Shown in pieces: positions 1 through 62,012 of a stretch of 64,000 bases of DNA. Source of the stretch: Antedon mediterranea (taxonomy: Eukaryota > Animalia > Echinodermata); NCBI RefSeq assembly GCF_964355755.1, contig NC_092673.1, positions 19,961,648 to 20,025,647 of the forward strand. Direction: 5' to 3'. A model generated the notes under the pieces. That model was not told where the DNA came from and did no database searches. It saw nothing but the letters and a program-made list of their open reading frames with translations. A program made the position numbers and the translations under genes. The stretch's first letter is position 1, and each line of letters starts with the position of its first letter.

Positions 1-1385
1 GTTGCGCAACATGACTTACGCGCGTTTTTACGAATTTCGCGTATTTAATATAGATCGAAAACCATATAACAATTTAAATTGAAACTTAACAAAAGTTTAA
101 TTTATATCTTGCGCTAACTGACTGTGGGGAAAAAATGGCATGTTTCACACGAAGTAACGCGCGCATGGGCATTTAAAATTTCAAATTGAGAAAAATCAAT
201 TTCTAATCAACTTTCTACGCGTTTCATGTCATTTTGAGCATGTCAAAATTCCCAGGCGTGCGCATTTTTTTACGCGTGCGGTGCACACGTAGCGTTGAAA
301 ACAATTTTTTTTCCGTGATTTATGTTTTTCCACCCTTTTTTAGTAATTTTACCAATTTCTAAACATTTTCGACTTAAAATCACGTCATACGGGCACGTCG
401 AATTGGATAATTTATGTGCGTTTTTGATGAAAAAGTTCAAAAATTTGTCAAAATTTGTCAAAATTATACCTTTTTTTAAACAGTCGTAGTTTCTAAACCA
501 AACGGTGAAAGTTATTTTTATTGCATATTCTGGAAGTTGATGAGTTGTAAATATCGGATCATGCATTAATATGGCTAACCGGACATTGTGACGTCACTGT
601 ATGGCCACGCGAATACAAAATTTAGGATTTTTGTATCTTTCGTCATAGCTCATCACATTTAATAGAGCGCATCTACACTTATCCGTTTTCCATTTTCACC
701 CCGATTTTGATATTGTCTAGGTCAATCAACTGTCTTTCGCATGAGTTAAAAATATTTTAATTTTTATGACGTCATCATGCCTAAAAATTTAAATTACATG
801 TTGCATAAATTTCATCTTTACAGTAAATTTTAATCTGTTATAGCTCGTAAGAATGAAATGTGATAATCACGATTAAAACGTTTTCTGGAAGCTATTGAAT
901 TGTAGATACGAAATCATGTGAACATTTTGCCAATCTGATGTTGTGAAGTCATCATATGGCCAGTTAAATAAAAAAAGTCGTATTTTTATCTTTTGCATTA
1001 TAATTCATTACATTTAAAAGAGCGCGCATCAATATTTCACGTATTCAAATTTCTTCTACATGCTAATATATTGTTGCTGAGATAATTTCCTTCCGAAATT
1101 GCTACCTTCGGGTTTCATTTTGAAACCGTCAACATGTTAAAAATTGGAATAAATAGCGGGTCCCGTAATTTCACCTATTCTACACTGTATGTGATGTATA
1201 CAGATTATACTGTGTATACTATATGACACAAAATAACAGAATTCAGCAATAATAACATAATCATATTCTTCTTCAGGTCATAATGCCATAATCTTTTTCT
1301 GTGTGCAATATTCCAACGCATGACGTGCTCGTGGCGTTTGTCGTGCGGATAACTAACTCGTCAAAGTGACGAGTTTCATGTCTAG
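1..1385 (+). mobile_element. HINE unit, subfamily C (5' part outside window)
   Basis: Ends TGCGGATAACT-AACTCGTCAAAGTGACGAGTT-TCATGTCTAG; body homologous to 1461-3056. Confidence 0.85.
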
Positions 1386-1458
1386 TTGGTTATCCGCAAC
1401 GAAGTTGCAGGATAACCTCTTGTGATTGTACGAAATCATCATCAACATCAACTTTTTA

Positions 1459-3056
1459 TTAGTTATCCGCATTCAGCGGATAACTCCTTGTAACTGTCCT
1501 GTTTCATCATCTTTTTTTTTTCTGTATTCTTCTTTCTTTCTGTCATTTTTGTGTCACGCGTAACTCAAAAACGCGTAAACATAACATTTTATAACTTAGT
1601 CAACATGTGGGCCTTCACGTGAAGTTGTGCACCTGCTATTGTGAATGACGTCAGAGTTGCGCAACGTGACTTACGCGCGTTTTTATGAATTTCGCGTATT
1701 TAACATAGATCGAAAACCATATAACATTTTAATTTGAAACTTAGAAAAACTTTAAGTTATATCTTGCGCTAACTGACTGTGGGAAAAAAAAGGCATGTTT
1801 CACACGAAGTGACGCGCGCACGCGCATTTAAAATTTCAAAATGCGAAAAATCAATTTCTAATCAACTTTCTACGCGTTTTATGTCATTTTGAGCATGTCA
1901 AAAATTCCCACACGAGCGCATATTTTTACGCGCGCTGTGCGCACGTAGCGTTGAAAACAATTTTTTTCTCGTGATTTATGTTTTTCCAGCCTTTTCAAGT
2001 ACTTTTAGCAACTTTTACACAATTTTGACTTAAAATTAACGTCATACGAGCACGTCGAATTGGATAATTTACGTACGTTTTTGATGAAAAAGTTCAAAAA
2101 TTCCTTAAAATTTGTCAAAATTTTACCTTTTTTAAAACAGTCTTAGTTTCTAAACTAAACGGTAAAAGTTATTTTTATTACGTATTCTGGAAGATGATGA
2201 GTTGTAGATATCGTATCATGCATCAATATTGCTAACAGGACATTTTGACGTCATCGTATGGCCATGCGAATATAAAATATAGGATTTTTGTATCTTTCGT
2301 CATAGAGCATCACATTTAATAGAGCGCATCTCCACTTACCCTTTTTTCATTTTAACCCAGATTTTGATATTTTCTAGGTCAATCAACTACCTTTCGCATG
2401 GGTTAAAAATATTTTAATTTTTTTGACTTCATCATGTCTAAAAATGTAAATAACGTGGGTCACTAATTTTCATCTTTACAGTAACTTTCAATCTGTTATA
2501 GCTCGTCAGAATAAAAAGCGGTAATCATGATTAAAACGTTTTCTGGAAGCTATTGTATTGTAAATACGAATTCATGTCAACATTTTTCCAATCCGACGTT
2601 GTGACGTCATCATATGGCCAGTTGAATAAAAAAAGTCGTATTTTCATCTTTTGCGTCATAGTTCATCACATTTAAAAGAGCGCGCATCTATATTTTACGT
2701 ATTCTAATTTCTTCTACATGTTAATATGTTATTACTGAGATAATATCCTTCCGAAATTGCTATCTTAGTGTTTCATTTTGATACCGTCGCCATGTTAAAA
2801 ATAGGAATAAACGGGGGTCCCGTAATTTCACCTATTTTACACTGTATGTAATATGTATACAGATTATACTGTTTCAAGTACTATATACTATATGACACAA
2901 AATTGACAGAATTCAGCACTAACAACATATCATATTCATCAGTTCAGGTCATAATGCCATAATCTTTTTCTGTGTGGAATATTCCAACGTATGACGTGCA
3001 CGTGGCGTTTGTCGTGCGGATAACTAACTCGTCAAAGTGACGAGTTACATGTCTAG
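1459..3056 (+). mobile_element. Intact HINE, subfamily C, preceded by an orphan D-like head (1388-1417)
   Basis: Head AGTTATCCGCATTCAGCGGATAACT at 1461; tail TGCGGATAACT + hairpin + CTAG at 3053-3056. Confidence 0.88.
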
Positions 3057-4637
3057 TTAGGTGATCATTTAGAATAAAATGATCACCTATTGTTATTGTA
3101 TGAAATCTTTATTTTTATTTTTTTTCTTTCTGTACACTTTTTGTGTAACAAATATCTCAAAAAGTTGAATAACAATGATCACAAAAATTTCACAATGTCT
3201 TTCAAATACTTTAACTTAGCCATAATAAGCTTTTCAGCGTGATCACTGACCCGTGACGTCACGTATACGCCATTTTGTGAAATCACATTATCAATCATAT
3301 ATCCATAATTCATTATCACATATTTATGAAATTTACTACACGTAAACTTCAGGTCAAGGGTAAAAATATTAGCAAATAAAAACGTGCGCGCACGTAGGTT
3401 TATGCGCGTGAAATCGCGCATTAAAAATTTAAAAAGCTCAAAATTACGTTTTAATCAATTTAGAGCATGAATTAGGCCATTTGCGTGTTTCAAAAAATTA
3501 CTGCGCAAAAAAATTATTTTGCGCGCGCGATACTTACAAAGTGTAAAAATTGCAATTTTTTATACAAATCGCATTCTATTCACCATCCTTAGTACATTCA
3601 CCAAATTTGAGTCAGTTCCGACTTAAAATAACGCTATACGAGCAGGTTAAAAATGACAAAATGCGCAAATTAATTGCATCAAAGTGATGAAAATGGTGAA
3701 AAATAAGGCCTTTTTAAAATGAATATAACTCTTCAGAATGGCAGGTGACCCCCAATTTTTTTAACTTATTCGGGAAGCCATTGGGTTGTAGATACATATT
3801 CATGTACACATTAGATGTACAAAATGGTATGACGTCATCAAATGGCCACTTGAATTTAAAAATTAGGAATTTTTATCTTTTTGTGAGGGTTATCACATTC
3901 AATAGAGCGCATCTCCGTTATTTGAGCCCGATTTTCGCACAACTTTTAGTATGTGCTTGCTCAATTAATTATTCTTCTAATGAGTTGTCAAAATTTTTAT
4001 TTTGATGACGTCATCACGCGTAAAAACTTGAATAACCTAGGTCGTGTAATTTCAGCTACACCATACATTTGAATATCTTATAGCTCTTCAGAATTAAAGG
4101 TGACCTTGAAGATTATAACTTATTATGAAAGCTGATGAAATGTAGATATGAATTCATATTAAAATTAAGCCTATCGGATGTTGTGATGTTATCATATGGC
4201 CAGTTGAATTTAAAAAGTAGTTTTTAAATTTCTTTAGTCAAAGTTATACAAATTTCAAAGACCGCGCATTGCGCTTCTACGTGTCAAATTTTCTTCCAAT
4301 CCTTATATTTATTTGCTCATTTCATTATCTTTCGAAATTGTCATCTTCGAGTTTATTTTGAAAATTGCATCATACCAAAAAATTAGAACACGATATGAGT
4401 CCCGTATTTTCACCTATGCTACACTGTATATAGATATACAGTATATACTGTACATATTGTATGGCATATAATAGGCACAACTCAGCACTATAAGCGTATG
4501 CATCATGTCATAGGATGGCGTACATTAACTTTTTACGATGGTATGTTAACGTACGTGCATGTTTAAAAAGTGTTAATTTCATTAAAATTATAAAAATGAT
4601 CACCTATAATTCGTCAAAGTGACGAATTAAATTCTAG
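3057..4637 (+). mobile_element. Intact HINE, subfamily B
   Basis: Head AGGTGATCATTTAGAATAAAATGATCACCT at 3059; tail ATGATCACCT-AT-AATTCGTCAAAGTGACGAATT-AAATTCTAG. Confidence 0.88.
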
Positions 4638-4753
4638 TTAGGTGATCATTTAGAATAAAATGATCACCTATTGTTATTGTACAAAATCTTTATTGTTATT
4701 AGGTGATCATTTAGAATAAAATGATCACCTATTGTTATTGTACAAAATCTTTA

Positions 4754-5965
4754 TTGGTTATCCGCACTTGGCGGATAACCTCTTGTTATTGTCAGGATCT
4801 TTTTTTTTTTCTTTTTTTTTTTTTTCTATATTCTTCTTTCTTTCCACGAATTTTGTTGCTAGTGTATCTCTAAATCTTCTTAACATAACATTGTATAACT
4901 TTATGAGAAGATTGATCTCTATTTGAAGATGTCGTAATAAGGTTTTCGGTACCGTCCGAGTTGCGCAGCGTAAGTTACGCGCGATTTTATGAATTTCGCG
5001 TATTTAATTTTGATCGAAAACTATTAAACCATTTAAATTGAAACTTGGCGGAAGTTTAATTTATATCATGCGCTAACTTTCTATGGAGAGAAAATGGCAT
5101 GTTTTACAGAAAGTTACGCGCGCACGCGCGTTTAAAATTTCAAAATGCGAAAAATCAATTTCTAATCAACTTTCTACGCGTTTCATGTCATTTTGAGCAT
5201 TTCAAAAATTCCCACGCGTGCGCAATTTTTTTACGCGCGCGTACGCACGTGGCACAAAAACATCTTTTTTTTGCTTGATTTTTGTTTTATCAGCCTTTTA
5301 TAGTAAATATACCAATTTTCAATCAATTTCGACTTAAAATCACGTCATACGAGCACGTAGAATTGAACAATTTACGCCGTTTTTTATGAAAAAGTTCAAA
5401 AATTCGTGAAAATTATGGCTTTTTAAAAAAAGTCATAGATTCTAAACTACGTGGTGAACTTTTTAAAAATTACAGATTCTGGAAGTAGATGAGTTGAAGA
5501 TATCGAATCATGCATGGATATGGCTAACCGGACATTTTGACGTCATCGTATGGCCACTCGAATATAAAATATAGAGTTTTTGTCTCTTTCGCATAGCTCA
5601 TCACATTTAATAGAGCGCATCTTCACTTATCCGTATTCCATTTCCCCCCATTTTGATATATTGTCTAGGCCAATCAATTATCTTTCGCATAATCTACCAT
5701 TTTTGAAATTGTGATGACGTCATCATGTCCAAAAGCGTCAATAACTTGGGTCCCTTATTTTCACCTATTCTGCACTGTATGTAGTACGTATACAGAATAT
5801 AGTGTATACCGTATATACTTTGACGTGACACAAAATAGAGAGCGCGCTAACATTTTTTCAATGGCATAATCGTTTTTCTGCGCGCAATATTCTAACGTAT
5901 AACGTGCACGTGGCCTTTGCGCTGCGGATAACCTAACTCGTCCGAAGTGACGAGTTCAAATCTAG
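4754..5965 (+). mobile_element. Intact HINE, subfamily A, nested behind two orphan B heads (4640, 4701)
   Basis: Head GGTTATCCGCACTTGGCGGATAACC at 4756; tail TGCGGATAACC-T-AACTCGTCCGAAGTGACGAGTT-CAAATCTAG. Confidence 0.88.
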
Positions 5966-8900
5966 TTATTATTGTTATTCTTCTTTCTGTACACTTTTTG
6001 TTCGTCAAATATCTCAAAAAGTTGAATAGCAATAATAACAAAAAATTCACAATGTCTTTCAAATACTTTAACTTAGCCATAATAAGCTTTTCAGCGTGAT
6101 CACTCATCCGTGACGTCACGTATACGCCATTTTGTGAAATCACATTATCAATCATATATCCATAATTCATTATCACATATTTATGAAATTCACTACACGT
6201 AAACTTCAGGTCAAGGGTAAAAATATTAGCACGTAAAAACGCGCGCGCACGTAGGGTCATGCGTGTGGAATCGCGCAGTAAAAATTTAAAAAGCTCAAAA
6301 TTACATTTTAATCAATTTAGAGCATGAATTAGGCCATTTGTGTGTTTCAAAAAATTACTGCGCAAAAAAAATATTTTGCGCGCGCGATACTTACAAAGCG
6401 TAAAAATTGCAATTTTTTTATACAAATCGCGTTCTACTCACCATCCTTAGTACATTCACCAAATTTGAGTAAGTTCCGACTTAAAATAACGCTATACGAG
6501 CAGGTTAAAAATAACAAAATGCGCAAATTAATTGCATCAAAGTGCTGAAAATGGTGAAAAATAAGGCCTTTTTAAAATGAATATAACTCTTCAGAATGGC
6601 AGGTGACCCCCAATTTTTTTAACTTATTCGGGAAGACATTGGGTTGTAGATACATATTCATGTACACATTAGACGTACAAAATGGTATGACGTCATCAAA
6701 TGGCCACTTAAATTTAAAAATTAGTAATTTTTATCTTTTTGTGTGGGTTATCACATTCAATAGAGCGCATCTCCGTTATTTGAGCCCGATTTTTGCCAAA
6801 ATTTTAGTATGTGCTTACTCAATTAATTATCTTTCTCAAGAGTTGTCAACATTTTTATTTTGATGATGTCATCATGTGTAAAAACTTTAATAACCAAGGT
6901 CGTATAATTTCAGCTACACCATACATTTGAATATGTTATAGCTCTTCAGAATTAAAGGTGACCTTGAAGATTATAACTTATTTTGAAAGCTGATGAAATG
7001 TAGATATGAATTCATATAAAAATTAGGCCTATCGGATGTTGTGACATTATGAAATGGTCAGTTTAAGTTAAAAGGTAGTTTTTTTCTCTCTTTCGTCAAA
7101 TTTATACAAATTTCAAAGAGCGCGCATTGCGCTTCTACGTGTCAAATTCTCTTCCAATCCTTATATTTATTTGCTCAATTCATTATCTTTCGAAATTGTC
7201 ATCTTCGAGTTTATTTTGATAATTCCATCATACCGAAAAATTTGAACATGATGTGGGTCCAGTAATTTCACCTATGCTACACTGTATATAGATATACAGT
7301 ATATACTGTACATAATAGGTACAACTCAGCACTATAAGTGTATATGCATCATGTCATAGGATGGCGTACATCAACTTTTTACGATCGTATGTTAACGTAC
7401 GTGAATGTTTAAAAAATGATAATTTCATTAAAATGATAAAAATGATCACCTATAATTCGTCAAAGTGACGAATTAAATTCTAGTTAGGTGATCATTTAGA
7501 ATAAAATGATCACCTATTGTTATTGTACAAAATCTTTATTGTTATTATTCTTCTTTCTGTACACTTTTTGTTCATCAAATATCTCAAAAAGTTGAATAGC
7601 AATGATCACAATAATTTCACAATGTCTTTCAAATACTTTAACTTAGCCATAATAAGCTTTTCAGCGTGATCACTCATCCGTGACGTCACGTATACGCCAT
7701 TTTGTGAAATCACATTATCAATCATATATCCATAATTCATTATCACATATTTATGAAATTCACTACACATAAACTTCAGGTCAAGGGTAAAAATATTAGC
7801 AAATAAAAACGCGCGCGCACGTAGGGTTAAGCGCGTGGAATCGCGCATTAAAAATTTAAAAAGCTCAAAATTACGTTTTAATCAATTTAGAGCATGAATT
7901 AGGCCATTTGCGTGTTTCAAAAAATTATTGCGCAAAAAAAATATTTTGCGCGCACGATACTTACAAAGCGTAAAAATTGCAATTTTTTTATACAATTCGC
8001 ATTCTACTCACCATCCTTAGTACATTCACCAAATTTGAGTAAGTTCCGACTTAAAATAACGCTATACGAGCAGGTTAAAAATAACAAAATGCGCAAATTA
8101 ATTGCATCAAAGTGCTGAAAATGGTGAAAAATAAGGCCTTTTTAAAATGAATATAATTCTTCAGAATGGCAGGTGACCCCCAATTTTTTTAACTTATTCG
8201 GGAAGCCATTGGGTTGTAGATACATATTCATGTACACATTAGACGTACAAAATGGTATGACGTCATCAAATGGCCACTTCAATTTAAAAATTAGTAATTT
8301 TTATCTTTTTGTGTGGGTTATCACATTCAATAGAGCGCATCTCCGTTATTTGAGCCCGATTTTCGCCGAAATTTTAGTATGTGCTTACTCAATTAATTAT
8401 TTTTCTCAAGAGTTGTCAATATTTTTATTTTGATGATGTCATCATGTGTAAAAACTTTAATAACCAAGGTCGTGTAATTTCAGCTACACCATACATTTGA
8501 ATATGTTATAGCTCTTCAGAATTAAAGGTGACCTTGAAGATTATAATTTATTATAAAAGCTGAATAAATGTAGATATGAATTCATATAAAAATTAAGCCT
8601 ATCGGATGTTGTGATGTTATCATATGGCCAGTTGAAGTTAAAACGTTGTTTTTAAATTTCTTTAGTCAAAGTTATACAAATTTCAAAGAGCGCGCATTGC
8701 GCTTCTACGTGTCAAATTATCTTCCAATCCTTATATTTATTTGCTCAATTCATTATCTTTCGAAATTGTCATCTTCGAGTTTATTTTGATAATTCCATCA
8801 TACCAAAAAATTTGAACATGATGTGGGTCCCGTAATTTCACCTATGCTACACTGTATATAGATATACAGTATATACTGTACATATTGTATATGACACATA

Positions 8901-11900
8901 ATAGGCACAACTCAGCACTATAAGCGTATATCAGGATGGTATACATCAACATTTTCCTATTGTATGTTAACGTACGTGCATGTTTAAAAAAATATTATGT
9001 CAGTAAAGCGATAAAAATGATCACCTATAATTCGTCAAAGTGACGAATTAAATTCTAGTTATTCTTCTTTCTGTACACTTTTTGTTCGTCAAATATCTCA
9101 AAAAGTTGAATAGCAATGATCACAAAAATTTCACAATGTCTTTCAAATATTTTAACTTAGCCATAATAAGCTTTTCAGCGTGATCACTCATCCGTGGCGT
9201 CACGTATACGCCATTTTGTGAAATCACATTATCAATCATATATCCATAATTTATTATCACATATTTATGAAATTCACTACACGTAAACTTCAGGTCAAGG
9301 GTAAAAATATTAGCAAGTAAAAATGCCCGCGCACGTAGGGTCATGCGTGTGGAATCGCGCAGTAAAAATTTAAAAAGCTCAAAATTACGTTTTAATCAAT
9401 TTAGAGCATGAATTAGGCCATTTGCGTGTTTCAAAAAATTACTGCGCAAAAAAAATATTTTGCGCGCGCGATACTTACAAAGCGTAAAAATTGCAGTTTT
9501 TTTATACAAATCGCGTTCTACTCACCATCCTTAGTACATTCACCTAATTTGAGTAAGTTCCGACTGAAAATAACGCTATACGAGCAGGTTAAAAATAACA
9601 AAATGCGCAAATTAATTGCATCAAAGTGCTGAAAATGGTGAAAAATAAGGCCTTTTTAAAATGAATATAACTCTTCAGAATGGCAGGTGACCCCCAATTT
9701 TTTTAACTTATTCGGGAAGCCATTGGGTTGTAGATACATATTCATGTACACATTAGACGTACAAAATGGTATGACGTCATCAAATGGCCACTTCAATTTA
9801 AAAATTAGTAATTTTTATCTTTTTGTGTGGGTTATCACATTCAATAGACCGCATCTCCGTTATTTGAGCCCGATTTTCGCCGAAATTTTAGTATGTGCTT
9901 GCTCAATTAATTATCTTTCTCAAGAGTTGTCAACATTTTTATTTTGATGACGTGATCATGTGTAAAAACTTTAATAACCAAGGTCGTGTAATTTCAGCTA
10001 CACCATACATTTGAATATGTTATAGCTCTTCAGAATTAAAAGTGACCTTGAAGATTATAATTTATTATGAAAGCTGATTAAATGTAGATATGAATTCATA
10101 TAAAAATTAAGCCTATCGGATGTTGTGATGTTATCATATGGCCAGTTGAAGTTAAAACGTTGTTTTTAAATTTCTTTAGTCAAAGTTATACAAATTTCAA
10201 AGAGCGCGCATTGCGCTTCTACGTGTCAAATTATCTTCCAATCCTTATATTTATTTGCTCAATTCATTATCTTTCGAAATTGTCATCTTCGAGTTTATTT
10301 TGATAATTCCATCATACCAAAAAATTTGAACATGATGTGGGTCCCGTAATTTCACCTATGCTACACTGTATATAGATATACAGTATATACTGTACATATT
10401 GTATATGACACATAATAGGCACAACTCCGCACTATAAGCGTATAACAGGATGGTATACATCAACATTTTCCTATTGTATGTTAACGTACGTGCATGTTTA
10501 AAAAATATTAATGTAAGTAAAGCGATAAAAATGATCACCTATAAATATTTTAACTTAGCCATAATAAGCTTTTCAGCGTGATCACTCATCCGTGGCGTCA
10601 CGTATACGCCATTTTGTGAAATCACATTATCAATCATATATCCATAATTTATTATCACATATTTATGAAATTCACTACACGTAAACTTCAGGTCAAGGGT
10701 AAAAATATTAGCAAGTAAAAATGCCCGCGCACGTAGGGTCATGCGTGTGGAATCGCGCAGTAAAAATTTAAAAAGCTCAAAATTACGTTTTAATCAATTT
10801 AGAGCATGAATTAGGCCATTTGCGTGTTTCAAAAAATTACTGCGCAAAAAAAATATTTTGCGCGCGCGATACTTACAAAGCGTAAAAATTGCAGTTTTTT
10901 TATACAAATCGCGTTCTACTCACCATCCTTAGTACATTCACCTAATTTGAGTAAGTTCCGACTGAAAATAACGCTATACGAGCAGGTTAAAAATAACAAA
11001 ATGCGCAAATTAATTGCATCAAAGTGCTGAAAATGGTGAAAAATAAGGCCTTTTTAAAATGAATATAACTCTTCAGAATGGCAGGTGACCCCCAATTTTT
11101 TTAACTTATTCGGGAAGCCATTGGGTTGTAGATACATATTCATGTACACATTAGACGTACAAAATGGTATGACGTCATCAAATGGCCACTTCAATTTAAA
11201 AATTAGTAATTTTTATCTTTTTGTGTGGGTTATCACATTCAATAGACCGCATCTCCGTTATTTGAGCCCGATTTTCGCCGAAATTTTAGTATGTGCTTGC
11301 TCAATTAATTATCTTTCTCAAGAGTTGTCAACATTTTTATTTTGATGACGTGATCATGTGTAAAAACTTTAATAACCAAGGTCGTGTAATTTCAGCTACA
11401 CCATACATTTGAATATGTTATAGCTCTTCAGAATTAAAAGTGACCTTGAAGATTATAATTTATTATGAAAGCTGATTAAATGTAGATATGAATTCATATA
11501 AAAATTAAGCCTATCGGATGTTGTGATGTTATCATATGGCCAGTTGAAGTTAAAACGTTGTTTTTAAATTTCTTTAGTCAAAGTTATACAAATTTCAAAG
11601 AGCGCGCATTGCGCTTCTACGTGTCAAATTATCTTCCAATCCTTATATTTATTTGCTCAATTCATTATCTTTCGAAATTGTCATCTTCGAGTTTATTTTG
11701 ATAATTCCATCATACCAAAAAATTTGAACATGATGTGGGTCCCGTAATTTCACCTATGCTACACTGTATATAGATATACAGTATATACTGTACATATTGT
11801 ATATGACACATAATAGGCACAACTCCGCACTATAAGCGTATAACAGGATGGTATACATCAACATTTTCCTATTGTATGTTAACGTACGTGCATGTTTAAA

Positions 11901-11970
11901 AAATATTAATGTAAGTAAAGCGATAAAAATGATCACCTATAATTCGTCAAAGTGACGAATTAAATTCTAG
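5966..11970 (+). mobile_element. Run of subfamily B units: headless 5966-7483, intact 7484-9058, headless 9059-11970 with a 1398-bp internal tandem duplication
   Basis: B bodies and tails; head present only at 7486; identical short ORFs recur 1398 bp apart (9426/10824, 9687/11085). Confidence 0.88.
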
Positions 11971-34312: not shown

Positions 34313-34344
<32 letters not shown>

Positions 34345-37300: not shown

Positions 37301-40300
37301 CATACGAGCACGTAGAATTAAACAATTTGCGCGCAATTTTGATGAAAAAGTCTAAAAATTTGTCAAAATTATGCCTTTTTTTAAACAGTCATAGATTCTA
37401 AACTACGTGGTGAACTTTTTTATAATTACATATTCTGGTAGTAGATGAGTTGTAGATATAGAATCATGTATCAATATGGCTAACAGGACATTGTGACGTC
37501 ATCGTATGGCTACTCGAATATAAAATATAGGATTTTTTTCTCTTTCGTATAGCTTATCACATTTAATAGAGCGCATCTCCGGTTATCCATATTCCATTGC
37601 CCTCCATTTCTTTATATTGTCTAGGTCAATCAATTATCTTTCGCATGATTAACCATTTTAGAAATTGTGATGACGTCATCATGTCCAAAAGCGTCAATAA
37701 CTTTGGTAACTTATTTTCACCTATTCTGCACTGTATGTAGTACGTATACAGTATATAGCGTATACCGTATATAGTATATAGCGTATACCGTATATATTCA
37801 GACGTGACGAAAAATAGAGAGCACACTGAAATTGTTTCAATGACTTAATCGTTTTTCTGCGCGCAATATTTTAATGTATGACGTGCACATGGCCTTTGCG
37901 CTGCGGATAACCTAACTCGTCCGTAGTGACGAGTTCAAATCTAGTTTTTCTTTATTCTTCTTTCTTTCCACGAATTTTGTCCGCAGCACATCTCTATCTT
38001 CTGGCTAACATAAGATTGTGTAACTTTGTCATACGATTGAGCTATAGCTGTAGATGTGCAGCCAAGCTTTTGGACAATTTTGGAGTTGCGCAGCGTAAGT
38101 TACGCGCGATTTTATGAATTTCAATGATTGATCATATATTGAAAACCAAAAGTCATTTTTTATTGAAACTTCGTGAAAATTTAAGTTATACCAAGGGCAA
38201 ACTTTCTATGGATTAAAAATGGCATGTTTGACAGAAAGTTACGCGCGCACGCGCGTTTAAAATTTTAAAATGCGTAAAATCAATTTCTAATCAACTTTCT
38301 ACGCGTTTCAGATCATTTTGAACATTTCAAAAATTCCCACGCGTGCGCAAATTTTTTACGCGCGCGTGCGCACTTAGCGCAAAAACATCTTTTTTTTGCT
38401 TGATTTTTGTTTTTTCAGCCTTTTCTAGTAATTTTACCAAATTTTCAATCAATTTCGACTTAAAATCACGTCATACGAGCAGGTAGAATTTAACAATTTG
38501 CGCGCGTTTTTGATGAAAAAGTTCAAAAATTCGTCAAAATTAGACCTTTTTTTAAACAGTCATAAATTCTAAACTACGTGGTGAACTTTTTTAAAATTAC
38601 ATATTCTGGAAGTAGATGAGTTGTTTTTCTCGAATCATGTATTGATATGCCTAACCGGACATTGTGACGTCATCGTATGGCCACCCGAATATAAAATATA
38701 GGATTTTTTTCTCTTTCGTCATAGCTCGTCAATTTAATAGAGCGCATCTCTACTTATCCTTATTCCATTTCACTCAATTTTTTTATATTGTCTAGATCAA
38801 TCAATTATCTTTCGCATGATCTACCATTTTAAAAATTGTGATGACGTCATCATGTTCAAATGCGTCAATAACGTTGGTCACTTATTTTCACCTATTCTGC
38901 ACTGTATGTAGTACGTATACAGTATATAGTGTTATACCGTATATACTTAGACGCGACGCAAAATAGAGAGCGCACTAACATTTTTCAATGCCATAATCGT
39001 TTTTTTTTTTTGCGCTCAATATTCTAACGTATGACGTGCACGTGGCTTTTGCGCTGCGGATAACCTAACTCGTCCGTAGTGACGAGTTCAAATCTAGTTG
39101 GTTATCCGCACTTGGCGGATAACCCCTTGTTATTGTCAGGATCTTTTTTTTTTTTTTTTTTGGTTATCCGCACTTGGCGGATAACCCCTTGTTATTGTCA
39201 GGATCTTTTTTATTTTTTTTATTTTTTTTCTCTTTTTTTTTCTATTTTCTTCTTTCTTTCCACGATTTTTGTTCGCAGCGTATCTCTAATTCTAGTCAAC
39301 ATAAGATTCTATAACTTTGTCATAAGATTGCCCTGTAGCTGTAGATGTGCAAGAAACTTTTTTTTATGAATTTGGAGTCGCGCAGCGTAAGTTACGCGCG
39401 ATTTTATGATATTCAATGATTGATCATAGATTGAAAACCAAAAGTCATTTTCTCATGAAACTTCGTGAAAATTTAAGTTATATCATGCGCAAACATTCTA
39501 TGGATTAAAAATGGCATGTTTGAAATAAAGTTACGCGCGCACGCGCGTTTAAAATTTCAAATTGCGAAATATCCATTTCTAATCAACTTTCTACGCGTTT
39601 CAGGGCATTTTGAGCATTTCAAAAATTCCCAGGCGTGCGCATTTTTTTTACGCGCGCGTGCGCACGTAGCGCAAAAACATCTTTTTTTTGCTTGATTTTT
39701 GTTTTTTCATCCTTTTCTAGTAAATTTACCAACTTTCAATCAATTTCGACTTAAAATCACGTCATACAAGCACGTAGAATTGAACAATTTGCGCGCGTTT
39801 TTAAAGAAAAAGTTCAAAAATTTGTCAAAATTATGCCTTTTTTAAAACAGTCATAGATTGTAAACTACGAGGTGAACTTTTTTTAAATTACACATTCTGG
39901 AAGTTGATGAGTTGTAGATATCGAATCATGCATCGATATGGCTAACAGGACATAGTGACGTCATCGTATGGCCACTCGAATATAAAATATAGGATTTTTG
40001 TCTCTTTTGTCATAGCTCATCACATTTAATAGAGCGCATCTCCACTTATCCAAATTCCATTTCTCCCCATTTTTTTATATTGTCTATGCCAATCAATTAT
40101 CTTTTGCATGATATACCGTTTTTAAAATTGTGATGACGTCATCATGTCCAAAAGCGTCAATAACTTGGGCCACTTATTTTCACATATTCTTCACTGTATG
40201 TAGTACGTATACAATATATAGTGTATACTGTGTATACTTAGGCGTGACGTAAAATAGAGAGCGCACTAACATTTTTTCAATGGCATAATGGTTTTCTCTG

Positions 40301-42690
40301 CACAATATTCTAACGTATGACGTGCACGTGGCGTTTGCTCTGCGGATAACCTAACTCGTCCGTAGTGACGAGTTCAAATCTAGTTTTTTTTTTTCTTTAT
40401 TCTTCTTTCTTTCCACGATTTTTGTTCGCAGCGTATCTCTAATTCTAGCTAACATCAGATTCTATAACTTTGTCATAAGATTGCCCTGTTGCTGTAGATG
40501 TGCAAGAAACTTTTTTTTATGAATTTCGAGTCGCGCAGCGTAAGTTACGCGCGATTTTATGAATTTCAATGATTGATCATAAATTAAAAACCAAAAGTCA
40601 TTTTATATTGAAACTTGGTGAAAATTTAAATTATATCATGCGCAAACTTTCTATGGATTAAAAATGGCATGTTTCTAATAAAGTAACGCGCGCACGCGCG
40701 TTTAAAATTTCAAAATGCGCAAAATTCATTTCTAATCAACTTTCTACGCGTTTCATGTCATTTTGAGCATTTCAAAAATTCCCACGCGTGCGCAATATTT
40801 TTACGCGCGCGTGCGCACGTAGCGCAAAAACATCTTTTTTTTGCTAGATTTTTGTTTTTTCAGCCTTCTTTAGTAATTTTACCAACTTTCAATCAATTTC
40901 GACTTAAAATCACGTCACACGAGCACGTAGAATTGGATAATTTGCGCGTGTTTTTGATGAAAAACTTCAAAAAATCGTCAAAATTAGACCTTTTTTTAAA
41001 CAGTCATAAATTCTAAACTACGTGGTGAACTTTTTTAAAATTACATATTCTGGAAGTAGATGAGTTGTTTTTCTCGAATCATGCATTGATATGGCTAACT
41101 GGACATTGTGACGTCATCGTATGGCCACCCGAATAAAAAATATAGGATTTTTTTCTCTTTCGTCATAGCTCGTCAATTTATTAGAGCGCATCTCTACTTA
41201 TCCTTATTCCATTTCACTCAATTTTTTTATATTGTCTAGATCAATCAATTATCTTTCGCATGATTCACCATTTTTAAAGTTGTGATGACGTCATCATGTT
41301 CAAATGCGTCAATAACTTTGGTCACTTATTTTCACCTATTCTGCACTGTATGTAGTACGTATACAGTATATAGTGTATACCGTACACACTTAGACGCGAC
41401 ACAAAATAGAGGGCTCACTAACATTTTTTCAATGGCATAATCGTTTTCTCTGCACAATATTCTAACGTATGACGTGCACGTGGCGTTTGCTCTGCGGATA
41501 ACCTAACTCGTCCGTAGTGACGAGTTCAAATCTAGTTTTTTTTTTTCTTTATTCTTCTTTCTTTCCACGATTTTTGTTCGCAGCGTATCTCTAATTCTAG
41601 CTAACATCAGATTCTATAACTTTGTCATAAGATTGCCCTGTTGCTGTAGATGTGCAAGAAACTTTTTTTTATGAATTTCGAGTCGCGCAGCGTAAGTTAC
41701 GCGCGATTTTATGAATTTCAATGATTGATCATAAATTAAAAACCAAAAGTCATTTTATATTGAAACTTGGTGAAAATTTAAATTATATCATGCGCAAACT
41801 TTCTATGGATTAAAAATGGCATGTTTCTAATAAAGTAACGCGCGCACGCGCGTTTAAAATTTCAAAATGCGCAAAATTCATTTCTAATCAACTTTCTACG
41901 CGTTTCATGTCATTTTGAGCATTTCAAAAATTCCCACGCGTGCGCAATATTTTTACGCGCGCGTGCGCACGTAGCGCAAAAACATCTTTTTTTTGCTAGA
42001 TTTTTGTTTTTTCAGCCTTCTTTAGTAATTTTACCAACTTTCAATCAATTTCGACTTAAAATCACGTCACACGAGCACGTAGAATTGGATAATTTGCGCG
42101 TGTTTTTGATGAAAAACTTCAAAAAATCGTCAAAATTAGACCTTTTTTTAAACAGTCATAAATTCTAAACTACGTGGTGAACTTTTTTAAAATTACATAT
42201 TCTGGAAGTAGATGAGTTGTTTTTCTCGAATCATGCATTGATATGGCTAACTGGACATTGTGACGTCATCGTATGGCCACCCGAATAAAAAATATAGGAT
42301 TTTTTTCTCTTTCGTCATAGCTCGTCAATTTATTAGAGCGCATCTCTACTTATCCTTATTCCATTTCACTCAATTTTTTTATATTGTCTAGATCAATCAA
42401 TTATCTTTCGCATGATTCACCATTTTTAAAGTTGTGATGACGTCATCATGTTCAAATGCGTCAATAACTTTGGTCACTTATTTTCACCTATTCTGCACTG
42501 TATGTAGTACGTATACAGTATATAGTGTATACCGTACACACTTAGACGCGACACAAAATAGAGGGCTCACTAACATTTTTTCAATGGCATAATCGTTTTT
42601 CTGCGCGCAATATTCTAACTTAGGTGTCATGCGCATGGGTTTTGCGATGCGGATAACCTAACTCGTCCGTAGTGACGAGTTCAAATCTAG
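29336..42690 (+). mobile_element. Run of eleven ~1.15-1.3-kb subfamily A units (single-headed, double-headed and headless)
   Basis: Tails at 30549, 31767, 32979, 34197, 35491, 36759, 37944, 39097, 40383, 41535, 42690. Heads at 29338, 30552/30577, 31770, 32982, 34200/34271, 35494/35545, 39100/39162. Confidence 0.88.
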
Positions 42691-44321
42691 TTGGTTATCC
42701 GCAACTAGTAAGTTGCGGATAACCCTTGTGATTGTAAATATCTTTTTTTAGTTGCGGATAACCCTTGTGATTGTAAATATCTTTTTTTTCATCTTCTTTG
42801 TTATTCTTCTTTCTTTCCCGGATTTTTGTGCGTCGCATATCTCTCATCCTTGTCAACATAAGATTGTATAACTTTGTCAAAAGATTGACCTGCAGCTGTA
42901 GATGTGCAAGAAACTTTGTTATATGACGTTAGAGTTGCGTTGCGTAAGTTACGCGCGATTTTATGAATTTCAATGATTCGTCATAGATTATAAACCAAAA
43001 GTCGTTTTGTATTGACACTTGATGAAAATTTAAGTCATATCAAGGGCAAACTTTCTATTGATTAAAAATGACATGTTTCACAAGAAGTTACGCGCGCACG
43101 CGCATTTAAAATTTCAAAATGCGCAAAATTAATTTCTAATCAACTTTCTACGCTGATCATGACATTTTTAGCATGTCAAAAATTCCCACGCGCGCGAAAA
43201 AAATTACGCGTAAGGTGCGCACGGAGCATGAAAATCATGTGTTTTTTTCTTGAATTATGATTTTACAGCCTTTCTTAGTCATTTTAAAAAAGATTTACAA
43301 CATTTCAAATTAAAATGACGTCATACGAACACGTTGATTTAGACAATTTGCGTGCCTTTTAGTTGCAAAAGTGACAAAATATTGTCAAAATTATGCCTAC
43401 TTTGAATCTATTATAGCTCCTCAGGATCAACCGTTACCCCCAATTTTTTTAATTTAATATGTAAGCAGATATGTTGTAGATATGAATTCATGCAGAATCT
43501 TTACCCCTCGGATGTTATGACGTCATCGTATGGCCACACGAATGTAAAATATTGAATTTTTGACTGTTTCGCTATTGCTCATTACATTAAATAGAGCGCA
43601 TATCGCTTATACGTATTCCATTTCCTAAGATATTTTAATACTGTCTAGGTCAACAACTATCTTTCGCATGAGTTAAAAATATTTTAATTTTTATGACGTC
43701 ATCATGTCTAAAAATGTAAATAACGTGGGTCACCTATTTTCATCTTTACAGTAAATTTCAATCTGTTATAGCTCGTCAGAATAAAAAGTGATCATCATGA
43801 TTAAAACGTTTTCTGGAAGCTATTGGATTGTAGATACGAAATCATGTAAACATTTTGCCAATCAGATGTTGTGATGTCATCATATGGCCAGTTAAATTCA
43901 AAAAGTCATATTTTCATCTCTTGCGTAAAAGTTCATTGCGTTTAAACGAGAGCGCATCTCTCTTTTACGTGCCCAAAATTCTTCAAATTTGTATTAATGT
44001 AATTAATTAGATAATTATCTTCTAAAATTGTTATTTTTGTATGTCAATTTCATGATGTCATCGTGTTAATAATTGGATTTAAAAGATGGGTCTCGTAATT
44101 CCGTCTATGCTACACTGTATATAACATATACAGTGTATTCTGTAAATACTGTAATATGATGTATGCTACAAAATAGGTACAATTCAGCACTGTAAAAATA
44201 TTTATTTCATGTCAAAGGATGGCATAATAATTGTCGAGGTTCATATAGTTAAGTATGTGCATGGATGCGTTTGAATTGCGCGGATAACCCGAACTCGTCA
44301 AAGTGACGAGTTCAAATCTAG
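42691..44321 (+). mobile_element. Intact HINE, subfamily D, with partial head duplication
   Basis: Head GGTTATCCGCAACTAGTAAGTTGCGGATAACC at 42693; D tail with CTAG at 44318-44321. Confidence 0.87.
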
Positions 44322-44365
44322 TTGGTTATCCGCACTTGGCGGATAACCCCTTGTTATTGTCAGGA

Positions 44366-44396
<31 letters not shown>

Positions 44397-47300
44397 CTAT
44401 GTTCTTCTTTCTTTCCACGAATTTTGTCCGCAGCATATCTCTATCTTCTGGCTAACATAATATTGTGTAACTTTGTCATAAGATTGACCTACAGCTGCAG
44501 ATGTGCAGCCAAGCTTTTGGACGATGTCGGAGATGCGCAGCGTAAGTTACGCGCGATTTTATGAATTTCAATGATTGATCATAGATTAAAAACTAAAAGT
44601 AATTTTGTATTGAAACTTGGTGAAAATGTAAGTCATATCATGCGCAAACTTTCTATGGATTAAAAATGGCATGTTTCACATAAAGTTACGAGCGCACGCG
44701 CGTTTAAAATTTCAAAATGCGTAAAATCAATTTCTAATCAACTTTCTACGCGTTTCAGGTCATTTTGAGCATTTCAAAAATTCCCATGCGTGCGCAATTT
44801 TTTTACGCGCGCGTGCGCACTTAGCGCAAAAACATCTTTTTTTTGCTTGATTTTTGTTTTTTCAGCTTTTTCTAGTAAATTTACCAATTTTCAATCAATT
44901 TCGACTTAAAATCACGTCATACGAGCACGTAGAATTGAACAATTTGCGCGCGTTTTTGATGAAAAATTTCAAAAATTCGTCAAAATTATGCCTTTTTTAA
45001 AACAGTCATAGATTCTAAACTCTGTGGTGAACTTTTTTAAAATTTCAGATTCTGGAAGTAGATGAGTTGTAGATAACAAATCATGCATCGATATGGCTAA
45101 CCGGACATTGTGACGTCATCGTATGGCCACTCGAATATAAAATATAGGATTTTTGTCTCTTTCGCATAGCTCATCACATTTAATAGAGCGCATCTCCACT
45201 TATCCGTATTCCATTTCCCCCCATTTTGTTATATTGACTAGGCCAATCAATTATCTTTCGCATAATCTAGGATTTTTTAAATTGTGATGACGTCATCATG
45301 TCCAAAAGCGTCAATAACTTTGGTCCCTTATTTTCACCTATTCTGCACTGTATGTAGTACGTATACAGAATATAGTGTATACCGTATACACTTTGATGTG
45401 ACGCAAAATTGAGAGCGCACTAACATTATTTCAATGGCGTAATCGTATTTCTGCGCACAATATTCTAACGTATGACGTGCACGTGGCTTTTGCGCTGCGG
45501 ATAACCTAACTCGTCCGTAGTGACGAGTTCAAGTCTAGTTGGTTATCCGCACTTGGCGGATAACCTCTTGTTATTGTCAGGATCTTTTTTTTTTTTCTTT
45601 TTTTTTTTTTTCTATCTTATTCTTCTTTCTTTCCCGGAATTTTGTTCGCAGCGTATCTCTAATTCTGGCGAATATAAGATTGTGTAACTTTGTCATAAGA
45701 TTGACCTCTAGCTGTAGATGTGCAGGACGTTTCGTTTTTTAACTTTAGAGTCGCGCAGCGTAAGTTACGCGCGATTTTATGAATTTCAATGATTGATCAT
45801 AGATTAAAAACCAAAAGTCATTTTGTATTGAAACTTGGTGAAAATTTAAGTCATATCATGCGGAAACTTTCTATGGATTAAAAATGGCATGTTTAACATA
45901 AAGTTACGCGCGCACGCGCGTTCAAAATTTCAAAATGCGCAAAATTCATTTCTAATCAACTTTCTACGCGTTTCATGTCATTTTGAGCATTTCAAAAATT
46001 CCCACGCGTGCGCACTTTTTTTACGCGCGCGTGCGCACGTAGCGCAAAAACATCTTTTTTTTGCTTGATTTTTGCTTTTCCAGCCTTTTCTAGTAAAATT
46101 ACCAATTTTCAATCAATTTCGACTTAAAATCACGTCATACGAGCACGTAAAATTGAACAATTTGCGCGCGTTTTTGAAGAAAAAGTGCAAAAATTCGTCA
46201 AAATTATGCCTTTTTTAAAACAGTCATAGATTGTAAACTACGAGGTGAACTTTTTTTAAATTACACATTCTGGAAGTTGATGAGTTGTAGATATCGAATC
46301 ATGCATCGCTATGGCTAACCGGACATTGTGACGTCATCGTTTGGCCACTCGAATATGAAATATAGGATTTTTGTCTCTTTCGTCTTAGCTCGTCACATTT
46401 AATAGAGCGCATCTCAACTTATCCGTATTCCAATTTCCCCCATTTTTTTATATTGTTTAATTCAATCAATTATCTTTCGCATGATTCACCATTTTTAAAA
46501 TTGTGATGACGTCATCATTTTCAAAAGCGTCAATAACTTTGGTCACTTATTTTCACCTATTCTGCACTGTATGTAGAACGTATACAATATATAGTGTTAT
46601 ACCGTATATACTTAGACGTGACGCAAAATAGAGAGCGCACTAACATTTTTTCAATTCTAACGTATGACGTGCACGTGGCTTTTGCGCTGCGGATAACCTA
46701 ACTCGTCCGTAGTGACGAGTTCAAATCTAGTATTTATTTGTTTCCTTCCACCCTTCTCCCCCATTTTTTGTGCGCAGCGTATCTCTAATTCTGGCCAACA
46801 TATGATTGTATAACTTTGTCAAAAGATTGCCCTGTAGCTGTAGATGTGCAAGAAACTTTTTTTTTCAAATTTCGAGTCGCGCAGCGTAAGTTACGCGCGA
46901 TTTTGTGAATTTCAATGATTGATCATAGAATAAAAACTAAAGGTCGTTTTGTATTGAAACTTGGTGAACATTTAAGTCATATAATGCGCAAACTTTCTAT
47001 AGATTAAAAATGGCATGTTTCCTAAAAAGTTACGCGCGCACGCGTATTTAAAATTTCAAAATGCGAAAAATCAATATCTAATCAACTTTCTACGCGTTTC
47101 ATGTCATTTTGAGCATTTCAAAAATTCCCACGCGTGCGCAATATTTTTACGCGCACGTGCGCACGTAGCGCAAAAACATCATTTTTTTGATTGATTTTTG
47201 TTTTTCCTGTCTTTTTTAGAAAATTTACCAACTTTCAAACAATTTCGACTTAAAATCACGTCATACGAGCAGGTAGAATTAAACAATTTACGCGCATTTT

Positions 47301-49091
47301 TGATGAAAAAGTTCAAAAATTTGTCAAATTTATGTCTTTTTTTAAACAGTCATAGATTCTAAACTACGTGGTGAACTTTTTTATAATTACATATTCTGGT
47401 AGTAGATGAGTTGCAGATATCAAATAATGCATCAATATGGCTAACCGGACATTCTGACGTCATCGTATGGCCACTCGAATATAAAATATAGGATTTTTGT
47501 CTCTTTCCTCGTAGCTCGTCACATTTAATATAGCGCATCTCCACTTATTTGTATTCCATTTCCCCCCATTTTCTTATGTTGTCTAGGTCTATCAATTACC
47601 TTTCGCACGATTGACCATTTTCAAAATTGTAATGACGTCATCATGTTCAAAAGCGTCAATAACTTTGGTCACTTATTTTCACCTTTTCTGCACTGTATGT
47701 AGTACGTATACAGTATATAGTGTATACCGTATATACTCAGACGTGACGAAAAATAGAGAGCACATTGAAATTGTTTCAATGACTTAATCGTTTTTCTGCG
47801 CGCAATATTTTAATGTATGACGTGCAAGTGGCCTTTGCGCTGCGGATAACCTAACTCGTCCGTAGTGACGAGTTCAAATCTAGTTGGTTATCCGCACTTG
47901 GCGGATAACCTCTTGTTATTGTCAGGATCTTTTTTTTTTTTTTTTTTTTTTTCTATGTTATTCTTCTTTCTTTCCCTGAATTTTGTTGGCAGCGTATCTC
48001 TAATTCTGGCAAACAGAAGATTGTGTAACTTTTTCATAAGATTGACCTGTAGCTGTAGATGTGCAGGACGTTTCGTTTTTTGACTTTAGAGTCGCGCAGC
48101 GTAAGTTACGCGCGATTTTGTGAATTTTGCGTATTTAACATAGATCAAAAACGAAAAAGCAATTTTAATTGAAACTTGGCAAAAGTGTATTTTATATCAT
48201 GCGCTAACTTTCTATGGATTTAAAATTGCAGTTTTCCAAAAAGTTACGCGCGCACGCGCGTTTAAAATTTCAAATTGCGAAAATTCAATTTCTAATCAAC
48301 TTTCTACGCGTTTCAGGTCATTTTGAGCATTTCAAAAATTCCCACGCGTGCGCAATTTTTTTACGCGCGCGTGCGCACGTAGCGCAAAAACATCTTTTTT
48401 TTGCTTGATTTCTGTTTTTCCTGTCTTTTTGTAGTAAATTTACCAACTTTTAAACAATTTCGACTTAAAATCACGTCATACGAGCATGTAGAATTGAACA
48501 ATTTGCGCGCGTTTTTGATGAAAAAGTTCAAAAATTCGTGAAAATTATGCCTTTTTTAAAACAGTCATAGATTGTAAACTACGAGGAGAACTTTTTTTAA
48601 ATTAGATATTCTGGAAGTTAATGAGTTGTAGATATCGAATCATGTATGAATATGGCTATCCGGACATTGTGACGTCATCGTATGGCCACTGAAATATAAA
48701 ATATAGGATTTTTGTCTCTTTCGCATAGCTCATCACATTTAATAGAGCGCATCTCCACTTATCCGTATTGCATTTCCCCCATTTTGTTATATTGTCTAGG
48801 CCAATCAATTATCTTTCGCATAATCTACCATTTTTTAAATTGTGATGACGTCATCATGTCCAAAAGCGTCAATAACTTTGGTCACTTATTTTCACCTATT
48901 CTGAACTGTATATAGTACGTATACAGTATATAGTGCATACTGTATATACTCAGACGTGACACAAAATAGAGAGCGCACTAACATTTTTTCAATGGCTTAA
49001 TCGTTTTTCTCTGAGCAATATTCTAACGCATGATGTGCACGTGGCGTTTGCGCTACGGATAAGCAAACTCGTTCGTAGTGACGTGTTCAAA
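44322..49091 (+). mobile_element. Four subfamily A units (44322-45538, 45539-46730, headless 46731-47883, 47884-49091 with decayed tail)
   Basis: Heads at 44324, 45541, 47886. The last tail reads TACGGATAAGC-AAACTCGTTCGTAGTGACGTGTT-CAAAT and lacks CTAG. Confidence 0.85.
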
Positions 49092-50770
49092 TTTATTTAT
49101 TTATTTATTTTTTTTTTTTTTATATTCTTCTTTCTTTCCACGAATTTGTTCGCAGTGTATCTGCATTGTATAACTTTGTCAAAAGATTGACCTGTAGCTG
49201 TAGATGTGCAATAAACTTCGTTATATGATGTTAGAGTCACGCAGAGCAAGTTACGCGCGATTATATAGAATTTTATGGTTGCTCATAAATTTTCAACACA
49301 AATTTATTTTTCAATAAAACTTTACGAGAGTGTATTTTATAATATTTATCAAATTTTGACATGATAAAAATTTCTAATTAATTCGCGTACATTTCAGGTC
49401 ATTTTGCGCATTTTAAAATTTTCTAAATTATTTGCGTTTTGCGAACGCATTTGTGCGTACAGCTCGTACAAAGCGTAGAAAAATGTGTTTTGTAATTGAT
49501 TTTTGTTGGTCATAGTCGTTTAATAGTAGATTTCACTCATTTTCATGAACTTTTATTGTAAATTAACGATGCACATGCACGTTGAACTTTAGAAATCCTG
49601 TGCTAAAGAATGACTAATATAATGCAAATTTGTGAAAAAATATACCTATTTTTATTCAGTTATAGCTCCTCAGTATGGCAGGTTACCCTATTTTTTGTTA
49701 ATGTATTATAGAAGCTAATGAGTTGTAGATATCAATTCATGTACAATTTGTACCTAAAGGATGTTCTGACGTCACCATATGGCCACTCGAATTTTTAAAA
49801 TAGATTTTTTTCTCTTTTGTATTATTTGATCCCATTTAATAAAGCGGATCGCGCTAGATTTTAATATGTTCTTGACAAATCAATTATCTTTCACATGAGT
49901 TAACAAAGTGACCACGTGATTAAAACTTATGGAAATTGTTGAATTGTAGATATGAATTCATATACAAATTTTGTTTATATGATGTTGTGACGTCCTCATA
50001 TGGCAGTTGTTCAACAAAAAGTCAGATGTTTATCTCTTTCGTAAAAAATCATCGCGTTTAAAATAGAGCGCATCTCAGTTTCACGTTCCGAAATTTTTAA
50101 AATTTGTATGTGTATATTATAATGTAATTATTTAGATAATTAAATTATATAACATATATAGTGTATTCTGTAATATGCTGTCAACACTGTAAACATATTT
50201 ATGTCTTACTCATAGGATGGCATAAAAATTGCCGGCGTGCTCAAAATTCTTCAACTTCTAAGAATGTATTTACTTAGATAATTATTCTCTAAAATTGTTA
50301 CCTTCATGTATAATAAAAATAAAATATAGGTCTCGTAATTTTTTCTGTGCTTTACTGTATATAAGTATATACTAGACGTATGACACAAAATAGGCACAAT
50401 TCAATAAATAAACCGCGCCTTTCACTTTTATCTGCCTTAATTTCCTCAAAATGCCAACATTTTGTTGCTCATAAAAATGTTCCTATCGGATGCTGTGAGG
50501 TCATGCTATGGGGTCATGCTATAAGGTGCTATGGCCAGTAATTGGAAAGGTAGGATTTTTATTTGTTTTTTGTCATAGTTCATCACTTCAACATATTACG
50601 CATCTCAGTTGTACGTGCCAAATTTCCTTTTAAAATAAAACGTATTATGTTATCGTTGAGATGAATTATTTTCCGAAAATGGACATACTTTTATGTTTCA
50701 TTTTGATGACATCAAACAATATTGTTCCCGTAATTTCATTTCTATACACCATAATATACTACAGTACAAC
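49092..50770 (+). mobile_element. Highly diverged HINE-homologous segment at the right edge of the array, no recognisable termini
   Basis: Retains body motifs (AAGATTGACCTGTAGCTGTAGATGTGC, GTTACGCGCGA, GTTGTAGATAT...GACGTCA..ATATGGCCA, CCCGTAATTTCA). The right boundary is approximate. Confidence 0.6.
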
Positions 50771-62000: not shown

Positions 62001-62012
62001 TTCTTCAAAACT

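Follow-up and report, generated by a model that had tools for sequence, protein, structure and literature searches.

How does one locus come to hold some 35 Helitron copies that point the same way and lie end to end or one inside another? Helitron integration is named as a question in the Helraiser paper (PMC5876387), and a 64,000-nt stretch of the echinoderm Antedon mediterranea (contig NC_092673.1, positions 19,961,648 to 20,025,647 of the forward strand; hereafter the window, with positions counted from its first letter) offers an unusually direct view of it, since a nest of small elements of the Helitron2/HINE type adjoins there a frame for RepHel, the Rep protein fused to a helicase. Our answer, held with somewhat more belief than doubt, is that the nest consists of about 35 one-strand units brought in by many separate insertions, each placed by RepHel bound at the 5′ end of a resident copy. 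The anatomy of the units and their polarity, the bracket-like closure of heads (5′ ends) and tails (3′ ends), insertion between T and T without duplication, and neighbours far less alike than their ends are what the window holds.

All the small elements share one build, in which TT, a 10-14 bp repeat folded as a hairpin and a T-rich linker open the element, and an inverted copy of the repeat, a hairpin and CTAG close it. The 5′ asymmetric inverted repeat is 10-14 bp long and offset from the end by 0-2 bp in 17 of the 17 pairs examined (the criterion for Helitron2/HINE is 8-15 bp long and 0-2 bp from the end), and pairs downstream as a hairpin whose stems, read at the junctions, are of 8-12 bp. 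At the other end the 3′ repeat lies 29-32 nt before the end (criterion about 20-30 bp), directly ahead of a hairpin with a stem of 8-10 bp. T follows 33 of the 33 tails and TT 29 of them, with no target duplication. No frame of at least 150 amino acids is present in 1-52000, which leaves the small elements without coding capacity. Because this anatomy matches the build set out by Bao & Jurka 2013 (PMC3627910) and Thomas et al. 2014 (PMC4067079), we classify them as non-autonomous Helitron2/HINE. The hairpin formed by the 5′ inverted repeat, its 3′ copy ahead of the 3′ hairpin, the T-rich tract behind the head, TT insertion without duplication and the lack of a coding frame are all shared with HINE/DINE-1 elements; those are described as interspersed in T-rich sites (PMC3627910, PMC4067079), whereas here nearly all insertions lie at the front end of another element, and the nest crosses families and spans at least 49 kb.

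Within the window, 33 intact tails (3′ inverted repeat, hairpin and CTAG) lie on the plus strand and none on the minus strand, and one degenerate tail (49066-49096) is also on the plus strand. Self-BLAST returned 2066 same-strand hits and two opposite-strand ones, and same-strand repeats cover 97.4% of 1-49100, the sole uncovered run being 26686-27966. An earlier note on this DNA had described about 35 polarised elements with nearly no host DNA between them, and these counts bear it out; its statement that all lie on one strand holds for the 34 tails but not for the canonical 1297-bp Helitron1 that accounts for the uncovered run, which sits within a D body and reads on the minus strand. Units in the nest measure 1.15-1.65 kb and are non-coding. 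Clustering of 36 bodies at 80% identity gives five clusters (A with nine members, B seven, C 16, D three and a divergent E one), six at 85% and 28 at 95%. There are five tail types in the nest and two cores of the subterminal inverted repeat (subTIR), GTTATCCGC in A, C and D and GGTGATCATTT in B. The count in the earlier note, at least six subfamilies with different subTIRs, was thus overstated. On the left the nest runs past the window, where the heads belonging to four of the tails must lie. One head is without a body.

What follows each tail tells where the insertions went. After the 33 tails the sequence enters a head 17 times, a head linker 15 times and a body once, so that 32 of 33 lead into a head or head linker (tail 26272 is counted as linker on a 10-nt linker remnant recognised by eye, where pattern matching had called body); these are the two kinds of junction, tail-CTAG-TT-head and the T-rich tract behind a head, that the earlier note had reported. 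All 17 tail-head joints contain exactly two T (CTAG-TT-head). Four of them cross families (A-B, D-A, C-D, D-C) and two cross subfamilies, and since the tail in the A-B joint is pure A up to its CTAG, only about 7 shared bases would have been available for a crossover. Linker insertion sites lie 51-73 nt behind the start of the host, and of the 15 insertions away from a boundary, with one duplicate dropped, 14 are in a linker and one is in a body. The Helitron1 at 26686-27982 serves as an internal control, being on the minus strand, within a body, at an A-T site and not at an end; both Helitron groups are or were active in the A. mediterranea genome.

The order of the units can be parsed like brackets, with each head an opening and each tail a closing bracket and with family labels set by eye. 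The features, read from left to right, are as follows.

1..49096, plus strand: nest of non-autonomous Helitron2/HINE elements of families A, B, C and D, continuing left of the window.
1386..18499, plus strand: host element Ax, its head (1386-1458) parted from its body and tail (16968-18499) by 15.5 kb of inserted elements (from the bracket parse, the empty site and a 12-bp head/tail inverted repeat match).
4638..11970, plus strand: three-deep nest of B head, B head, whole C, B body, whole B and B body; both empty sites restore an intact B linker.
9145..11942, plus strand: exact tandem duplication with a period of 1398 bp in one B body, with zero mismatch over 9146-10543; a recent duplication or an assembly artefact.
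11971..16753, plus strand: second three-deep nest of B head, B head, whole A, B body and divergent B body; the outer empty site is not restored.
16754..16967, plus strand: final 214 bp of an A element after a B tail, the only body insertion.
18500..26272, plus strand: headless D, Ax and A bodies, their heads left of the window, and two whole A-type elements (20020-21640 and 23166-24752, 99% alike).
26283..29275, plus strand: A-type head into which a whole D element (26341-29260) has inserted; the body of that head is outside the window.
26686..27982, minus strand: canonical non-autonomous Helitron1 of 1297 bp within the D body, with a TC start, a hairpin-CTAG end and an A-T site.
29276..49096, plus strand: C-family block of 15 C bodies and one D element (42691-44321), including four orphan C heads and five headless C bodies, one of these a 99% duplicate.
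49097..50773, plus strand: unit E, headless and tail-less, about 60-66% alike to the families, its pieces out of order; it may be an old copy or the 5′ arm of an autonomous element.
52221..61547, minus strand: uninterrupted RepHel frame of 3108 amino acids from stop to stop, the only long frame in the window.

Immediate head-tail pairs match in family in 19 of 19 cases. Delayed pairs match in 8 of 10 unfiltered, and in 9 of 9 if the 214-bp tail fragment and the 99% duplicate are left out of the count; a 12-bp match to the tail at 18499 supports the label given to head 1386. When the inserts are taken out, eight of 10 empty sites rebuild an intact linker, as judged by eye, and among the rebuilt hosts are B elements interrupted by a C and by an A element, an A element interrupted by a D element, and Ax with its 15.5 kb of inserts. 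Many independent insertions at existing ends, readable as an insertion history, had been proposed in the earlier note, and closure, rebuilt sites and the divergence between neighbours (below) all support this; the safe-harbour role suggested there for the locus is conjectural.

The candidate enzyme lies next to the nest. The RepHel frame holds, by Pfam, the domains Herpes_teg_N (PF04843), OTU (PF02338), DUF6570 (PF20209), Rep (PF14214), PIF1 helicase (PF05970) and AP endonuclease (PF03372), the Rep with HUH and Y2 motifs (patterns chosen by us) fused to the PIF1 helicase and the endonuclease C-terminal. These are the domain markers of HLE2 Helentrons as given in PMC11417382, and by them the frame is predicted to belong to an autonomous Helentron (HLE2 with endonuclease). 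Its closest relatives are other A. mediterranea proteins, with 65-96% identity in the searched region, and its first ~970 amino acids are 95% identical to one compared protein of this species.

A pathway leading from this enzyme to the nest can be proposed. RepHel would bind the 5′ inverted repeat and hairpin of a resident copy, the structure from which it also starts, and would nick the T-rich strand either at the element boundary or 50-75 nt further in. Joining of the incoming strand at this nick would fix the orientation. A tail-TT-head joint would have the same form as the junction between the two ends of a transposon circle and so be a cutting site of the enzyme, each joint inviting the next insertion, while tail read-through and a few local duplications would later have moved some blocks. 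There are published precedents: the Helraiser enzyme is proposed to nick at the left end and, on circles, at the point where the two ends meet (PMC5876387), and the HUH proteins TrwC and Rep of adeno-associated virus (AAV) integrate site-specifically (PMC6049929). These two, like RepHel, are HUH enzymes with a helicase, integrate at their own target and offer a functional model for homing to an end; they are plasmid and viral proteins with biochemically shown activity, that of RepHel being predicted.

Copies elsewhere were sought in short-read contigs of public sequencing runs. Seven runs were listed, four of which hold about half of the sampled words, and four were compared: X4, X5 and X6 from one sample and X1 from another organism (X1-X3 contain only a small share of the stretch). 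Contigs over one whole unit point to a high-copy family, their flanks not being resolved. For a 112-bp tail-head joint the depth is steady across the joint, which is bridged by contigs of X4 and X6; in X1 an exact 58-nt tail-head piece has a depth of 85 against 245 for the tail piece, a hint only, as its tail side of 17 letters is below the 31-letter bridge rule. Dropping junction-spanning words lowers the fit of the depth model (R2 from 0.97-0.99 to 0.67-0.91). Contigs of X4 also contain head-T5-head (depth 2907) and head-T8-head (depth 1792), several times single-copy depth. Head-head spacers in the window are only T7, T16, T18 and T27, and the absence of T5 and T8 there means that head stacks exist elsewhere; they may be double-headed elements moved as units. 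Under a random-TT model we estimate the share of tails followed by a head at near 1e-4 (with 181 TT plus AA per kb and a genome of a few hundred Mb). In metagenome contigs the exact tail motif had 0 matches.

Several results weigh against insertion guided by resident 5′ ends. The permutation P values of the bracket parse (5e-6 and 0.0015) are too generous because families cluster in space, and the rebuilding of empty sites is the stronger evidence of nesting; two of those sites (11971 and 29276) do not rebuild and one head lacks a body. The bias towards linkers, which speaks for such guidance, has P = 2e-16 (TT sites on both strands), 7e-13 (TT, plus strand only), 5e-4 (T7 runs, plus only) and 1e-5 (TTATT or T7, plus only, the most generous model), but these values were computed on four representative units in a locus picked for its nesting, with events taken as independent although two B-in-B stacks may be one event. 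The family also has dispersed copies, 20-24 contigs per run leaving a tail into unlike T-rich DNA and 22-36 entering a head from such DNA. Of the 15 joints shown by contigs over one whole unit, 2 are single-copy tail-to-body or body-to-head joints. Words spanning a C tail and then a C-like head account for 51-63% of tail words in X4 but for only about 14-36% in X5 and X6, shares from a rough deconvolution in which summed depth is no copy number and single-copy depths of ~300, 46 and 43 are assumed from the joint rows. Neighbouring units are slightly more alike than shuffled ones (90.0% vs 89.2%, p = 0.03; 90.6 vs 89.4, p = 0.006, with the duplicate kept), a small local signal. Neither a tail nor a head matching the nest occurs at 49100-64000 on either strand, although the RepHel element may extend past the window. 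Finally, about half of the linker sites sit in T runs, Helentrons prefer T-rich targets (PMC4067079), and hairpin tethering and preference for a T/pyrimidine tract are not separated by the present data.

This last point opens the alternative that survives best, and which we consider unlikely but deserving of serious attention: the enzyme would prefer a strand-specific T/pyrimidine-rich microsatellite, each element would carry the best such tract behind its 5′ hairpin, and local hopping together with tolerance of a gene-free region would fill the locus, so that recognition of the hairpin would be unneeded. T-rich sequence is the published target of HINEs as well as Helentrons (PMC4067079), a Chlamydomonas Helitron2 inserts after TTTT (PMC3627910), and the fixed orientation of Paramecium Helitrons comes from a strand-specific repeat target (PMC13085455). 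The T-rich flanks of the dispersed copies agree with it, as do the linker sites, and half of the plus-strand T7 runs in intact units fall in the first 100 nt. Such a preference leaves unexplained why all 17 joints have exactly two T when, with T runs of 5-27, many other registers were available. A number of linker sites are plain TTA-TT, which is common in bodies on both strands; under the most generous model above the bias still has P = 1e-5. T tracts are moreover very common in a genome of 33% GC, so that element heads should make up a small share of the targets.

Divergence between units bears on both the insertion of separate arrivals and its next competitor. Within the C family mean differences are 10.9% for bodies, 1.8% for heads and 1.9% for tails, and neighbours are 87-92% alike apart from one pair at 99%. 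Since decay in place should affect the ends as much as the bodies, neighbouring units likely differed already on arrival, the alternative being conversion limited to the ends. It is improbable, in our view, that rolling-circle concatemers, tail read-through and unequal crossing-over from a few founders built the locus, with head duplications and deletions producing the orphan heads and headless bodies. The tail-TT-head joint does resemble a circle junction, tandem Helitron arrays are known (PMC5876387, PMC12001565), and B copies are 94-98% alike. To this can be added the mosaic A-type subfamily and the head duplications of 25, 33 and 39 bp described below, and four pairs of recent local duplicates (9059a/b, 100%; 20020/23166, 99%; 40384/41536, 99%; 16968/21641, 97%). 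Against such an origin stand the contrast between C bodies and their ends, the cross-family joints with pure ends, the hosts split by other families that rebuild seamlessly and the 28 clusters that remain at 95%, and as the main route it is largely refuted. A single-donor rolling-circle concatemer, also doubted in the earlier note, was rejected because neighbours differ by about 10% and ends by 2% and joints cross families; homogenised satellite DNA was rejected on the same 28 clusters among 36 units. Nor did local duplication of a few founders emerge as the source, only the four pairs being recent: duplication and recombination contributed to the nest but did not build it.

That a high-copy family was mis-assembled into an artificial array is very improbable: no contig spans a 1.5-kb test stretch and the 1398-bp duplication is exact, but an assembler can tell most units apart, since the best match of each is only 85-94% alike, an artefact would not yield nested closure over 15 kb, and two runs have contigs that bridge tail-head joints.

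The insertion of separate arrivals at resident 5′ ends can be extended further, more tentatively than for the nest itself and with slightly more doubt than belief. RepHel may attach to whatever relative is resident, at its 5′ end and irrespective of family or subTIR type, nicking origin and target being one; joints would draw the next insertion, self-growing polarised multi-family islands would be general in animal Helentrons, and the neighbouring RepHel element, antisense as it is, could enclose the whole as outermost host, its head filled with tens of kb of passengers. The earlier note had placed an intact RepHel beside the nest, and the frame is indeed uninterrupted, but it runs antisense to the nest and has no matching ends in the window. 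Since other Helitron2 elements, a zebrafish Helentron among them, are known to carry their frame in antisense (PMC3627910, PMC5148889), RepHel may share the polarity of the nest, in which case unit E is possibly its 5′ arm and its tail lies beyond the window. Among 55 metagenome loci with RepHel relatives we found no convincing head-tail pair (locus L053 had one chance-like match), and none resembled the nest significantly, the best hit (E 0.008) being on simple sequence.

In one of these loci (L008, 7600-7781) the contig ends about 4 kb past the RepHel frame with an A16 run, T16 in antisense. The sequence that follows the T16 on the antisense strand is what we take to be similar to a HINE front end, which profile searches do not confirm; it is a weak hint of antisense frames in the clade.

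Other observations concern the same elements. The C element at the right edge of the nest (47884-49096) has a perfect head and a tail with about seven changes and no CTAG. Exact duplications of 33, 25 and 39 bp occur in the 5′ hairpin regions 26341-26406, 30550-30599 and 42711-42788 without a matching body, and may reflect slippage or aborted starts at the head. The A-type elements 20020-21640 and 23166-24752 combine a D-like middle (87-90%) with an A-like 3′ end (91-96%), and this subfamily is a recombinant mosaic.

Around RepHel, the closest relative (P0006) carries the Herpes_teg_N-OTU module twice in its predicted protein, a gene-model artefact or an internal duplication. On the minus strand, 57401-57819 holds 7.8 copies of a 54-bp in-frame repeat encoding basic 18-amino-acid repeats ahead of the DUF6570/Rep region. 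Direct duplications flank the frame at 51347-52083 (about 367 bp, 89%) and 62573-63103 (about 190 bp, 89%), and upstream of it a long, imperfect inverted repeat at 63300-63897 matches its reverse complement at 78% and is likely a miniature inverted-repeat transposable element. Two adjacent small hairpins at 61954-62030 lie beside a minus-strand site that by eye resembles a splice acceptor, which would place the RepHel promoter further right.

The earlier note knew of no description of such a system, and on this it was mistaken in part. FoHeli1 of Fusarium oxysporum, also a Helitron2, has multiple short 5′ termini for which self-insertion was proposed (Chellapan et al. 2016, PMC5148889); one copy sits 2 bp upstream of the 5′ end of another (PMC5148889), and a later count reached up to five 5′ termini (PMC13342296). 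Its 5′ ends are stacked within <200 bp, and three tandem copies are reported in Metarhizium (PMC5148889, PMC13342296). There, however, the stacked heads are on single elements and self-insertion is drawn from few cases, with no targeting claim in the sections concerned, whereas the nest still keeps inserts with their hosts, allows split elements to be rebuilt, mixes four families and has 17 exact joints. Tandems formed by repeated use of one preferred target site, which can seed satellites, are likewise published for Drosophila (McGurk & Barbash 2018, PMC5932611); that work concerns dimers and elements with target duplications, and its text contains neither 'Helitron' nor 'DINE-1', while insertion in the nest duplicates no target and the site used is an end of the elements themselves. 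Telomere Helitrons of Paramecium (PMC13085455) share an absolute orientation bias, a proposed specific target strand and a possibly antisense open reading frame, but belong to a third clade and target the host telomeric repeat rather than their own end.

In maize, Helitrons with multiple termini were traced to nesting (PMC3288121) and favour the neighbourhood of other Helitrons (PMC12477314, citing Yang & Bennetzen 2009); in Xenopus, the HLE2 element HelenXT233 has two left ends (PMC11417382) and tandem arrays hold 2-7 units (PMC12001565). Nested Helitrons and doubled ends are thus common to these and to the nest, but the passages concerned describe no exact-boundary stacking or long multi-family nest, and the maize elements are Helitron1, unlike those here. 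HINEs of oyster are described with internal repeats, not as nests (PMC7492417). A centromere atlas counts Helitrons as centromere colonists, without mention of Antedon or echinoderms. The open literature (subscription papers and Repbase notes being outside its scope) yielded neither a multi-family exact-boundary nest nor a test of end-homing; self-insertion at the 5′ end is already known, and the novelty lies in the size of the nest, in stacking across families and in joins at exact boundaries.

The locus preserves about 30 integration events with host and insert side by side, which makes target choice measurable base by base. It also carries a warning for annotation, since orphan heads and headless bodies are here split elements and not signs of decay. 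If homing to resident ends is true, it would account for the stacked 5′ ends of fungi and frogs, show how transposons can become a satellite-like block with no concatemer involved, and suggest a rolling-circle integrase with a short portable attachment site.

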